Source of the DNA: Candidatus Omnitrophota bacterium
GTDB lineage: Bacteria; Omnitrophota; Gorgyraeia; JAGLLT01
Direction: 5' to 3'
DNA length: 64,000 nt
NCBI GenBank assembly: GCA_023140385.1
Contig: JAGLLT010000018.1
Coordinates: forward strand, 6,071-70,070
Shown in pieces: positions 2,530 through 7,402 of the stretch; within the stretch, counting starts at the first letter, position 1; every line of letters starts with the position of its first letter. Made by a program: the position numbers and the translations under genes. The notes under the pieces were generated by a model. The model was not told the origin of the DNA and did no database searches. It saw only the letters and a list, made by a program, of their open reading frames with translations.

Positions 2530-2545
2530 AAAACTGTTTTCATTT

Positions 2546-2625
2546 GATAAGATTAAGAGGTTGTTTTATGATTTAAAACAAAGGTGTAGTCAAGTCGAGA
2601 CTTGACCCCTTATTTGACCCCTTAT
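2546..2625 (+). repeat. Repeat copy 1 (about 80 bp) containing the 18-bp perfect palindrome GTCAAGTCGAGACTTGAC (2589-2606), followed by tandem GACCCCTTATT
   Basis: Near-identical sequence recurs at 3825-3895 and 3899-3945. A degenerate inverted copy lies at 5431-5456. Seen directly in the sequence. Confidence 0.8.
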
Positions 2626-2701
2626 TCCGCATGCTAATCAAACAATTACTTGTGATTAGAAATTAATTGATACTAAATTACTAAAATGGTATAATTAAAC
2701 T

Positions 2702-3010
2702 ATGATTAAGAATAAAAATGATATTATATCGGTAATTAAAAAACGTCGAAACGAGATTGAATCTTTTGGGGTTAAAAGGTTGGGTCTGTTTGGCTCCTTT
2801 GTCCGGCAGGAACAAGATTCGCAAAGTGATATAGATCTACTTGTGGAATTCGAACAAGATAAAAAAACTTTTGATAATTTTATACACCTTTCATTCTTAT
2901 TGGAAAATCTGCTTGAACATCATATAGAATTGGTTACTCCTGAATCACTAAGCCCTTACATTAAACCACATATTGTAAAAGAGGTTGAGTATGTTATTTC
3001 CCGGCTCTGA
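2702..3010 (+). CDS. MntA-like minimal nucleotidyltransferase (antitoxin-type NTase)
   Basis: 102 aa. It carries the GLFGSFVRQEQDSQSDIDLLVEF motif (GSxxRGxxxxxSDxD) typical of Pol-beta-superfamily minimal NTases that pair with HepT. Confidence 0.7.
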   Translation: MIKNKNDIISVIKKRRNEIESFGVKRLGLFGSFVRQEQDSQSDIDLLVEFEQDKKTFDNFIHLSFLLENLLEHHIELVTPESLSPYIKPHIVKEVEYVISRL

Positions 3011-3203
3011 ATGCTTAAGCCATATTCTTGATGAGACAAAATACCTTATAACTCAGACGAAAGGCCTTGAACAATCCGGTTTTGCTGAAAACGAAACATT
3101 GCAAAGAGCTTTTGCGCGTAGTATAGAAATAATCGAAGAAGCCACAAAGAAAATCCCTCCACTCCACCAAGAAATCAAAAAGATTATTGATAAAGAAAAA
3201 TAA
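2985..3203 (+). pseudogene. HepT-like (DUF86) toxin gene, apparently 3'-truncated
   Basis: 72 aa. It overlaps the NTase gene by 26 nt, as in MntA/HepT pairs. The N-terminal region resembles HepT. The ORF stops before the region that normally carries the Rx4HxY catalytic motif. No alternative frame restores that motif downstream. Confidence 0.45.
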
Positions 3204-3428
3204 AAAACACATAACACCCATAATGCCCCGCTTATCAAGGGAAAAGATTTCCCCGGACAAGATTCTTAAAAATCCTTTAGAGTTGTAAAAATGAAGTTAT
3301 TTCATTTAGTTAAAGTGTTGGTTCATTCCAACCCTTTTAGGAAAGTTTAACAAAACTTAGCCCGCAAGAGGGCCTTAATTATTATCAAGACACTACAGCT
3401 GACCGTAGCCCGCGCCGAAAAGGCGCGT

Positions 3429-3707
3429 GTGCTGGTAGGTGATGTCAATGTTGGAAGAAAGATTTCTGAAATGAATAATGCGATTGAACGGAACCTTGGA
3501 GAGCAACCCATCACACGAATTATGGCGGGCCATGGTATTAAAGCACAGAACCTTGTCGCTATCTCAACTGAACAGATCACTCACAAGATGGTATCCCGGG
3601 CGTGCAAAGGTAGAAGGTTAACACCTGGCTCCCAATCCAAGATTCGCAACGCGTTGAATAAGTCCACGGGCAAAAAGTATTCTATGAAGGAACTGTTTAC
3701 CTATTAA
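3429..3707 (+). CDS. Hypothetical small ORF (92 aa, GTG start) in a locally GC-richer segment; no family recognised
   Basis: Open frame only. It is preceded by the hairpin CGCGCCGAAAAGGCGCG (3411-3427). It could be a remnant of a mobile-element gene or non-coding. Confidence 0.2.
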   Translation: MLVGDVNVGRKISEMNNAIERNLGEQPITRIMAGHGIKAQNLVAISTEQITHKMVSRACKGRRLTPGSQSKIRNALNKSTGKKYSMKELFTY

Positions 3708-3754
3708 CTTGTGCTATGAATGTTATAAGGAAAGACCTGTGGATGGGAAAAAAG

Positions 3755-3822
3755 ATTGAATATAAAGCAAGGCATTAAGGTCAAGATAGTATTAAAACAA
3801 GACCAAAAAAGTGGTAAATTAA
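3755..3822 (+). repeat. 68-bp duplicate of the 5' coding end of the YwbE-like gene (identical to 5583-5649); a start-less gene fragment
   Basis: Exact match to 5583-5649, read directly. In this upstream copy the reading frame has no start codon and is closed by an upstream stop. Confidence 0.85.
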
Positions 3823-3824
3823 TA

Positions 3825-3945
3825 ATAAGATTAAGAAGTTGTTTTTTGATTTAAAACAAAGGTGTAGTCAAGTCGAGACTTGACCCCTTATTTTAAATAA
3901 AACAAAGGTGTAGTCAAGTCGAGACTTGACCCCTTATTTTAATAA
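3825..3945 (+). repeat. Repeat copies 2 and 3 (tandem), each with the GTCAAGTCGAGACTTGAC palindrome (3867-3884 and 3913-3930)
   Basis: The flank ATAAGATTAAGAAGTTGTTTTTTGATTTAAAACAAAGGTGTAGTCAAGTCGAGACTTGACCCCTTATTTT matches copy 1 with 3 differences. A tandem copy of the ~46-bp core follows immediately. Confidence 0.8.
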
Positions 3946-3954
3946 AAGGACACG

Positions 3955-5427
3955 ATGAAAAATAAAATTTCTATTATAACTCTTGGCAGTGCCTTAGTAA
4001 CGGGTATTTTATTTAATCATTTGTTTTATGGTAAGGTGCCCGGTATATCCTTTGCGATCTTTTTTTATTTTACTTTGGCATGTATTGTAGTTTTTGCACG
4101 ATTTTCAAAGTGCTCTTTCAATCCGCCACAAATTCTCATGATGGGCGGTGTGTTGATTTTCTCGTTTTTCTTTTGTTATCGTGCGGCTCCGGAATTAGTG
4201 CTCATTAATTTTTGTTTGACAATCTATTTTTTTACATTGGTTTTCTCAAATCATCTGACGGGCAGGTCGATAAAAGGCCAAAATTTTATTGATTATTTCT
4301 TCCTGCCTTTCAGATTTTTTATCAGATCATATAGTTATGGAGGAAAAGAAGTTTTAAATAAGTGTCGGGTGCGAAATGAGACTCACTTAAGCATTGCGAA
4401 AAGGTTCCTTATTGGTTTATTGATTGCCATACCGCTTCTTCTATTAATTAGCTTGCTAATGAGTAGCGCTGATCAGATTTTTAAGAAATTAGCAGATTCT
4501 TTCTGGGAGTTTTTCAGAGAATATCTACTGGAAGGAATTGGACGCGGGATCCTTATTCTTATCGTTACGGTTCTTTATGCAGGAATTTATTCTTGGAAGT
4601 ACAGAAAGGGAGAGGAGGATGTAAAAAGATTTGTTACAACCCCCTCTAAGCAACGGGGTTTTGTGGAAGGCACTGTTATTATAACTCTCCTGAATGTTCT
4701 TTTTTTGATATTTACGGGTATACAAGTAATTTTTTTATTGGGGAAAGAAGAACAAATTACACGTTTAGGTGTTACTTATTCGGTATATGCCAGGCAGGGG
4801 TTCTGGCAAATGGTCTGCATAGCTATTATAGTTTTAATTATATCAATTTTATTAGAGGGAAAGATGGGTCGAAATACGGATAAGCAAAGACGTATTCATA
4901 AAATCAATCTTTGTTTAACCAGTTTAATGATGACGGTGGTTATGATTTCTGCCTTTTATCGTCTTTGGTTATATGAGCAAAGTTATGGGTTTACTGTTTT
5001 GCGGTTTTATAGTCATACATTTATTATCTATGTTGCTGCCGTCTTTGTAATTTTAAGTACAAAAATATTAAAAGAGCATAGTTCACAGAAATTTTTATTT
5101 AATAGTTTTGTTGCCACGCTTCTCCTTTTTGTTTTTTGGAATGTTTCGAACCCTCATTACTTTATTGCTTCAATCAATTTAAATCGTCATAAGACAAGTG
5201 TAAGAGAACTCGATATTTCATATCTTAATCAACTCTCGGATGATGCAATACCGGCTATAACATCTGCATTAAATGAAGAGCGGGATGATCCAGCATATGA
5301 AAAATTAAGAGAGCATCTTATTAAGAGGAGAGTTAAAATTCAAAAAAGGATTGAGAATAAGACTTTGCTTTCTCAAAATATAGCAACACTTAAAGCTTTG
5401 ACGGAGATAGATCGTATATTGAAATAG
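3955..5427 (+). CDS. Polytopic integral membrane protein of unknown function (about 10 predicted TM segments; DUF4153/DUF4173-like is a guess)
   Basis: 490 aa and very hydrophobic, with a charged coiled C-terminal tail. It is bracketed by repeat copy 3 (ends 3945) and the inverted degenerate copy (5431-5456). Confidence 0.5.
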   Translation: MKNKISIITLGSALVTGILFNHLFYGKVPGISFAIFFYFTLACIVVFARFSKCSFNPPQILMMGGVLIFSFFFCYRAAPELVLINFCLTIYFFTLVFSNHLTGRSIKGQNFIDYFFLPFRFFIRSYSYGGKEVLNKCRVRNETHLSIAKRFLIGLLIAIPLLLLISLLMSSADQIFKKLADSFWEFFREYLLEGIGRGILILIVTVLYAGIYSWKYRKGEEDVKRFVTTPSKQRGFVEGTVIITLLNVLFLIFTGIQVIFLLGKEEQITRLGVTYSVYARQGFWQMVCIAIIVLIISILLEGKMGRNTDKQRRIHKINLCLTSLMMTVVMISAFYRLWLYEQSYGFTVLRFYSHTFIIYVAAVFVILSTKILKEHSSQKFLFNSFVATLLLFVFWNVSNPHYFIASINLNRHKTSVRELDISYLNQLSDDAIPAITSALNEERDDPAYEKLREHLIKRRVKIQKRIENKTLLSQNIATLKALTEIDRILK

Positions 5428-5430
5428 TTT

Positions 5431-5456
5431 AAGGGGTTAAGTCTTGGCTTGACTAC
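5431..5456 (-). repeat. Degenerate inverted copy of the palindromic repeat core
   Basis: The reverse complement GTAGTCAAGCCAAGACTTAACCCCTT matches GTAGTCAAGTCGAGACTTGACCCCTT at 23 of 26 positions. Confidence 0.6.
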
Positions 5457-5565
5457 ATGTTGATAGTTTGACATAATCCGTCCAATATTGATTAAATGTA
5501 CCTAAAATAAATAATCAAAAAAAACAAATGGCCAGACCACTGGGTATATTATTTGAAGGAGCATA

Positions 5566-5760
5566 TTGTCACATTATAAATTATTGAATATAAAGCAAGG
5601 CATTAAGGTCAAGATAGTATTAAAACAAGACCAAAAAAGTGGTAAATTAACCGAAGGAATTGTTAAAGATATCTTAACAAAGTCTCCTTCACATCCTCAC
5701 GGCATAAAGATAAGATTGACTAGTGGAGAAGTGGGACGAGTTAAAGAGATATGCGGATGA
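5566..5760 (+). CDS. Small YwbE-like protein (DUF2196-like)
   Basis: 64 aa. The pattern KQGIKVKIVLKQDQKSGKLTEG...GIKIRL.SGEVGRV is typical of the YwbE family. Its first about 68 nt are duplicated at 3755-3822. Confidence 0.5.
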   Translation: MSHYKLLNIKQGIKVKIVLKQDQKSGKLTEGIVKDILTKSPSHPHGIKIRLTSGEVGRVKEICG

Positions 5761-5902
5761 CAAAAAAGAGATAGCTTGACATTTACAATTATTTATCTAA
5801 CCGCTTACTATATTAGAAAAATATAGAAAATAGCAACCAGCCATCCCTTTACGCAGAAACGCGCATTCCTTATTTTCTGAGGGAAGTACGCCCGCATTAG
5901 TG

Positions 5903-5931
5903 TTGACACTTACCTTATTATAATATATAAT
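5903..5931 (+). promoter_or_regulatory. Sigma70-type promoter TTGACA-17-TATAAT upstream of lysS
   Basis: TTGACA at 5903-5908, a 17-nt spacer, TATAAT at 5926-5931. The RBS AAGGAGGGG lies at 5939-5947 and the ATG at 5957. Confidence 0.6.
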
Positions 5932-5956
5932 CACCAGTAAGGAGGGGTTTATTTGA

Positions 5957-7402
5957 ATGGAAAATTTGAACGAGATTATTCGGCAAAGAATAAATAAATT
6001 AAAAGAGATTAAAGAAAAAAATATTGATCCTTACGGCCGTAAGTTTGAGCGTAGCCACAGTATTAACGAAGCTGTGAACTCTTTTGATGAAACAAAAGAG
6101 GTAATCGTAAAGACAGCCGGCAGGATTAGAGCCTTAAGGGGCCACGGCAAAAGCTCCTTTTTGGATATTAGAGATGAGGATGGAAAAATTCAGCTCTACG
6201 TTAAGAAGGGGCTGATTAGTGAAGATGAGTACTGGCTTTTTGAGAGGCTGGATATCGGCGATATCATCGGGATTGAAGGCAGGCTTTTTAAGACCAGAAG
6301 CGGCGAAGTTACTATCGAGGTTAAATCTTTGACGCTTCTTTCTAAGTCATTAAGGCCTCTTCCTGAGAAGTGGCACGGCCTGAAGGATGTTGAAGCCAGA
6401 TACAGACAGCGTTATCTTGATTTGATTTCCAATGAGGAAGTAAGAAAAACCTTTAAGTTAAGAACGCGGATTGTCAGTAAGATAAAGGAGTTTTTAGACA
6501 AAAAGGGTTATCTTGAAGTAGAGACGCCTATGATGCATATTGTGCCGGGTGGAGCCGCCGGCAGGCCCTTCAAGACTCACCATAACGTCTATGATATTGA
6601 TTTGTACTTAAGAATCGCGCCTGAGCTGTACCTGAAAAAGCTGTTGGTAGGAGGCTTTGAAAAAATTTATGAGATTAATCGCTCCTTTAGAAACGAGGGC
6701 ATCTCTGTAAAACATAATCCGGAGTTTACTATGCTGGAGGTTTATCAGGCCTACGGGGACTATGAAGAGATGATGGACTTAATCGAGGAGTTGGTTACTT
6801 ATGTGGCTCAGGAGGTGCTGGGAACACTGAAGATTACTTATCAAGGGGAGGAGATTGATTTAAAGCGTCCGTGGAAGAGGCAGTCTTTTGCCGAGGCGCT
6901 GGGAATCAGCCCGGAAGAAAAGGATCCGGCCGCCTGGAAAAAGATTTTATGCGCAAAGTTTGGCCTTGATATAAATGAAAAGATAAGCCGATCAGCCCTT
7001 TTAAATGTGGCGGAAGATTTGCTTGATGAAAAGGAAAAGAATAATCCGACCTTCTTTACCGACTATTTTACCGAGGTAAGCCCTTTAGCCAAGACGAGAA
7101 AAGACAGGCCTCTTCTGGCTGAAAGATTTGAACTTTTTGTCGGGGGGATGGAGATAGCCAATGCTTATTCGGAGCTCAATGATCCGCTTGAACAGGCCGA
7201 GCGCATAAGAGTTCAGCAGGAGGATGACGAAGAAAGACTGCATAAAATTGATAAAGACTTTATCACCGCCCTCGAGTATGGCATGCCTCCCGCGGGAGGC
7301 CTGGGCATAGGCATTGACAGGCTGGTGATGCTTTTGGCCGACAAAGCTTCTATTAGAGAGGTGATTTTATTTCCCCAGTTAAAACCGGAAAAACAGGATT
7401 AA
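5957..7402 (+). CDS. lysS: Lysine--tRNA ligase (class II)
   Basis: 481 aa. N-terminal OB-fold anticodon-binding domain plus class II catalytic core (FRNEG motif, GGAAGRPF, GLGIGIDRLVMLL). Confidence 0.93.
   Translation: MENLNEIIRQRINKLKEIKEKNIDPYGRKFERSHSINEAVNSFDETKEVIVKTAGRIRALRGHGKSSFLDIRDEDGKIQLYVKKGLISEDEYWLFERLDIGDIIGIEGRLFKTRSGEVTIEVKSLTLLSKSLRPLPEKWHGLKDVEARYRQRYLDLISNEEVRKTFKLRTRIVSKIKEFLDKKGYLEVETPMMHIVPGGAAGRPFKTHHNVYDIDLYLRIAPELYLKKLLVGGFEKIYEINRSFRNEGISVKHNPEFTMLEVYQAYGDYEEMMDLIEELVTYVAQEVLGTLKITYQGEEIDLKRPWKRQSFAEALGISPEEKDPAAWKKILCAKFGLDINEKISRSALLNVAEDLLDEKEKNNPTFFTDYFTEVSPLAKTRKDRPLLAERFELFVGGMEIANAYSELNDPLEQAERIRVQQEDDEERLHKIDKDFITALEYGMPPAGGLGIGIDRLVMLLADKASIREVILFPQLKPEKQD

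Follow-up and report, generated by a model that had tools for sequence, protein, structure and literature searches.

Introduction

Elements of the TIRYT/TIRtron type encode a long Y1 transposase and are bounded by terminal inverted repeats (TIRs) that carry GGGGWSAS; these repeats overlap the end of the gene and are also found as dimers and clusters (PMC3733652). Transposases of TnpA-Y1 subclass 2.1 have a Bac_DnaA_C-like C-terminus and have been reported without sequences resembling repetitive extragenic palindromes (REPs) nearby, a REP being formally defined as a GTAG or GTGG tag lying 0-2 nt 5' of a fully paired stem of 7-20 bp that is closed by a loop of 2-5 nt (PMC6006769). Here we describe a locus in a 64-kb stretch of contig JAGLLT010000018.1 from a Candidatus Omnitrophota bacterium (the window), in which copies of a palindromic repeat, and an exact duplication of the first 68 nt of a ywbE gene, lie between lnt and lysS. 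An earlier reading of this region (the sequence-only reading) had interpreted these features as signs of an insertion. We consider it likely, from the comparisons given below, that the window holds the wreck of a TIRYT/TIRtron-type element, the ends of which were rearranged in an lnt-lysS islet by duplication or recombination.

Results

The repeat and its intact element in related genomes

Exact matches to the motif GTAGTCAAGNCNAGACTTNACCCC were collected from other metagenomes with one genome per species, a sampling that favours loci with identical repeats. The scan returned 29 loci, all but one of them in metagenome-assembled genomes (MAGs) of Omnitrophota, the exception being a Desantisbacteria MAG. 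The search for further copies that the sequence-only reading had proposed was thus rewarded, with both full elements and short doublets. Neighbouring copies in the (-,+) orientation fell into two spacing classes, 37-157 nt (15 doublets) and 1062-1099 nt, and (+,-) neighbours were separated by a minimum of 842 nt. The spacing and orientation of the pairs therefore define the unit as GGGG...CTAC, an interior, and GTAG...CCCC. Units of ~1.05-1.07 kb hold a 329-aa open reading frame (ORF) between the (-) and the (+) copy, and seven such full elements were seen.

The 329-aa protein matches Y1_Tnp in Pfam (3.4e-16; 59.9 bits against a cut-off of 23), and its match to Bac_DnaA_C (1.9e-06; 28.3 bits) falls slightly under the cut-off of 31.5. 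An alignment of 38 transposase sequences showed H60-Y61-H62 and Y119/N123/P124 to be invariant. Compared with known structures, the transposase profile matched domain IV of DnaA (1J1V) at 7.9e-12 and, marginally, the E. coli TnpA-REP (4ER8) at 0.0097. The right repeat encodes the last seven codons of the gene (ending RCSQVET) together with its TGA stop, and the left repeat (GGGGTCAAGTCTCGACTTGACTACA) supplies a -35 box, TTGACT, which in the intact element L034 lies 17 nt from TATAAT. Taken together, the sequence comparisons identify the repeat as the TIR of a ~1.05-kb TIRYT/TIRtron element, encoding a predicted Y1 (HUH) transposase with a DnaA-domain-IV-like C-terminus that belongs to TnpA-Y1 subclass 2.1. 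The resemblance to ends of miniature inverted-repeat transposable elements (MITEs) or of IS200/IS605 that had been remarked on earlier was well founded, in that these are TIRs of an IS200-superfamily Y1/HUH element which has short doublets in relatives.

The transposase family is large, with >7,000 protein clusters. An inverted repeat of ~22-26 nt ending in AGACTTGACCCC also encloses the gene at 80 more distant loci from metagenomes, its right copy lying over the stop codon; the two end motifs paired across the gene 42 times in these loci, several of which were counted more than once. In the hairpin of the wider family, for which we claim no covariation support, an inner GTCAA and an outer TTGAC are common and not universal, the register and loop vary, the stem is of 4-6 bp and the tag varies.

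Related MAGs also carry many of the short doublets of repeat ends (37-157 nt), which from their structure would behave as non-autonomous derivatives of the element. One MAG had 29 repeat copies and one transposase gene, a ratio that is suggestive only, as it comes from motif-selected 8-kb pieces of the MAG. At least 13 species-level MAGs, from different habitats, share a 24-nt core of the repeat, GTAGTCAAGTCGAGACTTGACCCC (loci L013-L041), without a single difference, whereas their transposases are only 44-78% identical. Such rigidity is unusual for a REP-like sequence, and is probably due to the double role of the core as coding sequence and recognition site.

Several loci showed further rearrangements. 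At L031, one host gene (4554-5516) takes its last codons and TGA from an inserted repeat (ending GGQVST), and a second (5619-6614) reads through an inserted repeat (EGVKSRLDYT); because these genes run into the repeat, the element remodels the C-termini of neighbouring proteins. At L017, two partial transposase fragments (245-709 and 2308-2526) lie beside a full element, and one of them (aa 1-73) directly adjoins the full copy at its left repeat, which suggests nested insertion or rearrangement at element ends. On the 1109-nt scaffold L045, which comes from the metagenome sample that also gave L003, lies another transposase copy, truncated at its 5' end (from ~codon 36) and with its own right repeat; this copy is 93% identical to L034.

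Remnants of the transposase gene in the window

Comparison with intact elements allowed us to assign the following features, given with their coordinates in the window.

2545..2615, plus strand: right-end block copy 1, the last ~20 codons of the Y1 transposase gene and the right TIR (alignment to intact element L034:5880-6030; tblastn aa 305-329, 84%; translation)
2600..2625, plus strand: immediate tandem duplication GACCCCTTATTT / GACCCCTTATTC, from the terminal GACCCC of the repeat
3755..3822, plus strand: upstream copy of the first 68 nt of ywbE, with TTG at 3756, cut off and joined to a transposase 3' fragment as a pseudogene stub (68/68 identity to 5583-5650)
3823..3893, plus strand: right-end block copy 2, the last ~20 codons and the right TIR (68/71 to copy 1; 97% to L034; tblastn)
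3894..3939, plus strand: tandem partial third right-end copy, 46-nt period
3955..5427, plus strand: DUF4153/DUF4173 membrane protein of 490 aa, between a right end and a left end (Pfam 6.8e-67; orientation statistics)
5430..5457, minus strand: decayed left TIR with 3 mismatches that weaken the hairpin (fold -2.2 kcal/mol, z = -0.2; alignment to the L034 left end)
5449..5477, plus strand: promoter-like site of the transposase gene, -35 TTGACT within the left repeat, 17-nt spacer, CATAAT (same layout in L034, with TATAAT)
5458..5582, plus strand: transposase 5' untranslated region (UTR; 5458-5527) and first 18 codons (ATG at 5528; 5528-5581, MARPLGILFEGAYCHIIN), then one orphan T (mean column identity 85% in the L034 alignment; blastn 84%; tblastn aa 1-18, 83%)
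5583..5760, plus strand: complete ywbE (DUF2196), the first 68 nt of which are the downstream duplication copy (Pfam 4.7e-30; TIGR03833 4.8e-31)

Searches with tblastn placed the last 20-25 codons of the transposase gene at 2528/2545-2602 (aa 305-329) and 3821-3880 (aa 310-329), and the first 18 codons at 5528-5581. Thus the window keeps only aa 1-18 and 305/310-329 of the transposase, the ~870 nt in the middle being absent, and the fragments that remain align to L034 at 84-97%. The 3' remnants at 2545-2615 and 3823-3893 read DKIKRLFYDLKQRCSQVET and NKIKKLFFDLKQRCSQVET, respectively, each up to the stop codon; in copy 1, which begins 16 nt past the lnt stop codon, the TGA falls inside the hairpin of the right TIR (TGTAGTCAAGTCGAGACTTGACCCC, 2585-2609). 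We read 2545-2584 and 3823-3862 as gene remnants because the transposase gene overlaps the repeat in intact elements. In sum the window holds end blocks only, namely two blocks of the last ~20 codons with a right repeat, one extra right repeat in tandem, and one decayed block of left repeat, 5' UTR and first 18 codons. The remaining pieces are not a functional mobile unit. The sequence-only reading had described a segment with no transposase and had supposed a mobilising function that was lost, acted in trans or was unconventional; the first point is wrong in detail, as 3' and 5' fragments of a transposase gene are found, and for the second, the transposase gene is there as a wreck.

A single nucleotide of the transposase gene marks the start of both 3' fragments (at 2545 and 3823; T[G/A]ATAAGATT), which have different DNA upstream. 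Independent truncations would not coincide at one nucleotide. The shared start hints at a block that was copied already truncated, or at a preferred breakpoint.

Copies, fold and possible function of the repeat

The repeat copies reported earlier near 2546-2625, in tandem at 3825-3945 and inverted at 5431-5456 were all recovered, with limits of 2545-2615, 3823-3893, 3894-3939 and 5430-5457. Across 69 nt, 2547-2615 and 3825-3893 are 97% identical. Matches to the 18-mer GTCAAGTCGAGACTTGAC at up to 3 mismatches numbered seven in the 64-kb window against 0.01 expected, and no copy was found elsewhere in the window at up to 8 mismatches in 27 nt. This 18-mer had been called a perfect palindrome; it consists of 8-nt arms and a 2-nt centre (8+2+8), and its reverse complement differs at 2 positions. 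It folds into a 7-bp stem with a 4-nt loop, a hairpin of which the left repeat at 5430-5457 no longer keeps the greater part. The inverted copy begins 3 nt past the stop codon of the 490-aa gene, within the 10 nt claimed for it, but the third right-end copy ends 15 nt ahead of the ATG, so that the claim held for the stop and not for the start. The same arrangement is present in independently assembled contigs from five other samples of the same study, and an assembly error is therefore unlikely. Over the whole window, Rfam at gathering thresholds and scans for tRNA and tmRNA returned nothing, and hence the repeat is neither a known RNA nor a tRNA-derived att site.

Could the motif serve the host as a terminator, or as the operator of a dimeric regulator, and recur through its function and not through mobility? 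The three plus-strand copies score as terminator-like, CCCTTATTT coming after the 7-bp stem; a protein that binds DNA as a dimer would fit the 8+2+8 symmetry; and in relatives the motif follows many unrelated genes. Such an origin is nevertheless extremely improbable given that at least 13 species-level genomes agree at every one of 24-28 nt, that the motif always occurs as GGGG-outward pairs bracketing a transposase gene or a short spacer, and that in the window 42 nt of transposase coding sequence lie upstream of it. A terminator role fits as a secondary effect of mobile-element ends and not as their origin, and the plain terminator idea was retained only in that form. The right-end hairpins with their CCCTTATTT T-runs could thus act as terminators, and the promoter-like site of the left end (5449-5477) now faces ywbE and might serve it. 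The GAAGGAG within the transposase remnant also faces ywbE, for which the ORF offers two starts, TTG 5584 or TTG 5566, the latter within the remnant.

The accessory islet and its empty site

The rest of the region comprises three features.

2702..3203, plus strand: islet cargo, MntA-type nucleotidyltransferase antitoxin (2702-3010) and truncated HepT-like toxin (2985-3203) (Pfam, NCBIfam)
3429..3707, plus strand: islet cargo, 92-aa ORF (ORF92) without a family
5903..5931, plus strand: lysS promoter (TTGACA, 17 nt, TATAAT), return to the conserved backbone (alignable to the spacers between lnt and lysS in L042-L044)

The order in the window is therefore lnt; 3' fragment and right repeat; MntA, truncated HepT and ORF92; ywbE nt 1-68; 3' fragment, right repeat and extra right repeat; DUF4153; left repeat and 5' fragment; complete ywbE; and lysS.

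In the nearest relatives (L042, L043 and L044), Lnt is 56-59% identical and the gene order uvrD ... secA-lnt-lysS-lolE-lolD ... clpC is shared with the window. In all three, lnt is followed directly by lysS, across a spacer of 87-143 nt in which the lysS promoter (5903-5931) is the one part alignable to the window, and the repeat was found in none of them. Because lnt adjoins lysS in these relatives, the whole of 2530-~5890, including ywbE, is taken as an accessory islet of 3.3 kb, with a right limit between 5761 and ~5895. The islet has a low GC content, 0.347 over 2530-5890 against 0.434 and 0.433 in the flanks. The predicted empty site is thus lnt|lysS and not ywbE, which would itself belong to the islet. 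That the region is accessory, as first proposed, agrees with the adjacency of lnt and lysS in the three closest relatives. The comparison of lnt-lysS intervals that had been suggested did expose an empty site, though not at ywbE and in distant relatives only.

The MntA-type antitoxin (2702-3010) and the HepT-like remnant of 72 aa, which covers profile positions 4-47 of 120, form a decayed type VII toxin-antitoxin pair. ORF92 had no match in Pfam or PHROGs. The gap between the HepT remnant and ORF92 (3340-3440) is G+C-rich with short hairpins (GCCCGCAAGAGGGC; GCGCGCCGAAAAGGCGCG), one of which scores as a minus-strand terminator-like site; the stretch has no Rfam match.

With single-gene units separated by imperfect palindromic repeats, a toxin-antitoxin cassette, and doublets at ~1-kb spacing in related loci, the islet could call to mind an integron-like cassette array in which the repeats are attC sites. 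We gave this next to no credence and dropped it: there is no IntI-type integrase within 10 kb, the repeats by inspection have no R''/R' cores (GTTRRRY/RYYYAAC), and the associated gene is that of a Y1 transposase with its stop codon in the repeat.

The DUF4153 gene

The DUF4153 gene is flanked by a right end and then a left end, and is thus inside-out with respect to a real unit. In related genomes the right-then-left arrangement is seen only around ordinary host genes, at distances of at least 842 nt. Placed as those host genes are, with a right end on one side and a left end on the other, it sits outside any element and is not a carried cassette. The copies flanking it had been likened to terminal inverted repeats, a view that does not survive, as their orientation is reversed compared to every real unit and the left copy is decayed. 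We considered DUF4153 homologues as a route to the donor and set them aside; the nearest is 50% identical, in an unrelated context and without the repeat.

The 68-nt duplication of ywbE

The exact duplication of the first 68 nt of ywbE was borne out, with 3755-3822 identical to 5583-5650 at 68/68 positions. On its inner sides it is bordered by the 3' fragment and the 5' fragment of a single transposase gene, joined with 0-3 nt of microhomology. At the upstream junction (68-nt copy to codon ~310) the sequence runs GGTAAATTAA|TAATAAG, in which TAA is common with the transposase gene, and at the downstream junction (codon 18 to 68-nt copy) it runs ATTATAAAT|T|ATTGAAT, with one orphan base. The 32-aa ywbE'-transposase fusion ORF was looked up elsewhere and is not on record. 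Two tandem units can be read, 2545-3822 (1278 nt) and 3823-5650 (1828 nt), each starting with a 3' fragment and right repeat and ending with ywbE nt 1-68.

The sequence-only reading explained the duplication as the footprint of a ~1.76-kb insertion that regenerated the gene end, that is, a hairpin-ended non-autonomous cassette carrying DUF4153 which integrated site-specifically at the 5' end of ywbE, mobilised in trans or unconventionally. An exact 68-nt direct repeat does bracket the segment, repeat copies lie near the start and the stop of the gene, and the ywbE reading frame is kept. We find this model very improbable. Of the copies that flank the segment, the right end comes first and the left end, which is decayed, comes second, whereas every real unit has them the other way round; the inner edges of the 68-nt repeat are transposase-gene fragments and not termini; and ywbE is absent from the lnt-lysS interval of relatives. 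The genes called over the 10 kb to each side of the segment include no recombinase or integrase. Compared with a site-specific, att-type integrative element, the segment lacks both an integrase and a direct repeat that abuts element termini. Y1 transposases of the IS200 superfamily are also not known to generate long target duplications. Because the inner edges are transposase-gene fragments and not element termini, the att and target-duplication readings were dropped, and the 68-nt repeat is best read, from its junctions, as a scar of illegitimate recombination or duplication.

The repeated pieces of the element would then have been duplicated or recombined by illegitimate joining at 0-3 nt of microhomology, and loss of redundant parts may have followed. 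The 68-nt duplication would mark the two points at which ywbE was joined to the halves of the split transposase gene. Two histories can be envisaged. In history (a), a longer unit would have been duplicated in tandem and would then have suffered complementary losses. In history (b), homologous recombination at ywbE would have taken in a circle that bore DUF4153 together with a deleted element containing ywbE filler.

Taken as a full alternative, history (b) is a Campbell-type event, in which recombination between two elements flanking DUF4153 releases a circle, made up of DUF4153 and one non-autonomous element whose deleted interior is filled with 68 nt from ywbE, and this circle enters the real ywbE by homologous recombination. 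A single homologous crossover gives the present order exactly. When 3823-5650 is closed into a circle it reads contiguously as left end, 5' fragment, ywbE 1-68, 3' fragment and right end, and both ywbE junctions, with the TAA microhomology and the orphan T, resemble those of filler DNA. Yet no element with ywbE filler, and no ywbE-like sequence, was seen in any other fetched locus; copy 1 by lnt, which has the same gene start without ywbE sequence, is left unexplained; and 68 nt is short for efficient homologous recombination. We therefore regard such an origin as unlikely.

Some points weigh against the reading that we prefer, namely a TIRYT/TIRtron-type wreck rearranged by duplication or recombination. 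The nucleotide at which both 3' fragments begin is not predicted by a simple unequal crossover, and it fits neither history (a) nor history (b) neatly. The data fit both histories and do not single out one order of events. Finally, the relatives are distant (Lnt 56-59%), so the empty site is old and ywbE could be backbone in nearer ancestors; an empty site at high identity was not found, the closest Lnt outside the population being 59% identical. None of 110 other loci had a lone end block with this inner boundary, or an element containing ywbE sequence.

Duplications at element ends

Of 203 element ends (110 loci), 26 (12.8%) carry a tandem duplication that takes in the terminal GACCCC of the repeat and 4-15 nt of flanking sequence. 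The duplications start exactly after GACTT, and the rate at control GAC sites is 0.4%; where there are bases between the duplicate copies, they are the last bases of the repeat. End duplications are seen in the window (2600-2625) and at L015, L023, L025, L034, L036, L041 and L049, as well as L057, L064, L070, L076, L116, L122 and others, and the 46-nt tandem right end in the window is a longer relative of them. This pattern suggests a break point between GACTT and GACCCC at element ends. The break may be a nick made by the transposase, followed by extension and resealing.

Discussion

What had appeared to be an integration module without a recombinase becomes, on our preferred reading, an ordinary decayed Y1-transposase element whose pieces promoted rearrangement of the lnt-lysS islet. 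More widely, DnaA-domain-bearing Y1 transposases (TIRYT, subclass 2.1) have proliferated in Omnitrophota together with non-autonomous doublets, and none of the papers searched links RAYTs (REP-associated tyrosine transposases) with Omnitrophica. The Omnitrophota repeat fits the formal definition of a REP although subclass 2.1 was reported without REPs, and the end-specific duplications offer a concrete candidate cleavage site for subclass 2.1 transposases.

A bolder proposal would be that the Omnitrophota elements are a missing link, in which TIRYT repeats are processed like REPs as GTAG-tagged single-strand hairpins, the end duplications are footprints of nicks, and the units in the window arose from HUH strand transfer that captured host genes and not from random illegitimate recombination. 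We think this distinctly unlikely.

Comparison with known systems

In having host genes between directly repeated pieces of an element, tandem units with identical ends, and junctions with little or no homology, the locus resembles the scars of tandem duplication and of translocatable units (IS26 units, amplifiable units). It differs in that the pieces are truncated ends of a Y1 gene and a host-gene fragment, with no active copy in the window.

With IS200/IS605 and the derived PATEs (palindrome-associated transposable elements) and MITEs, the elements share the HUH superfamily, a single catalytic tyrosine, hairpin-containing ends and short non-autonomous derivatives. Unlike the TnpA of IS200, which is ~130-150 aa without a DNA-binding extension, the transposase here has 329 aa, and the NCBIfam model transpos_IS200 scores 27.1 bits against a cut-off of 55. 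The hairpins of IS200/IS605 are direct, whereas these ends are inverted repeats of 22-28 nt. By size, model score and end orientation the elements thus fall outside IS200/IS605.

REPtrons, that is, RAYTs with their REPs or REPINs (Nunvar 2010; Bertels and Rainey 2011, PMC3116915; Ton-Hoang 2012), come closer: in them, as here, GTAG-tagged hairpins in inverted orientation flank a Y1 transposase, transposase genes are few and short inverted doublets (REPIN-like) many, and hairpins lie 3' of genes. All Omnitrophota copies have the structure of a formal REP, GTAG followed by TCAAGTC GA GACTTGA with a 7-8-bp stem and a short loop. In contrast to a REPtron, the transposase has an extra DnaA-like domain and is placed outside the RAYTs by the curated NCBIfam model REP_Tyr_transpos (REP-associated tyrosine transposase; 73.2 bits, under the cut-off of 80), the repeat is not lineage-specific, being identical in many species, and the GTAG tag and long stem are not kept in the wider family.

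The closest system is the TIRtron/TIRYT (Di Nocera et al. 2013, PMC3733652), equivalent to TnpA-Y1 subclass 2.1.2 (Quentin et al. 2018, PMC6006769). In both, a Y1/HUH transposase of ~330 aa has a C-terminal helix-turn-helix related to Bac_DnaA_C, and long TIRs are present, of which the outer end here, GGGGTCAA(GTCT), fits GGGGWSAS at 7/8 positions and does so at both ends in the 7 Omnitrophota elements. In both the repeat overlaps the 3' end of the gene, and repeats also occur as dimers or clusters away from it, as 15 doublets in the MAGs and as only one tandem pair in the window. The intact relatives thus show the Y1 HUH core, the Bac_DnaA_C-type C-terminus, the GGGGWSAS TIRs and the dispersed dimers of a TIRYT. 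Unlike in described TIRtrons, the Omnitrophota repeat has an 8+2+8 palindrome after GTAG that gives it the form of a REP, and the window has broken pieces and no whole element. The remnant is of a known kind, an ordinary mobile-element wreck and not a new integration system.

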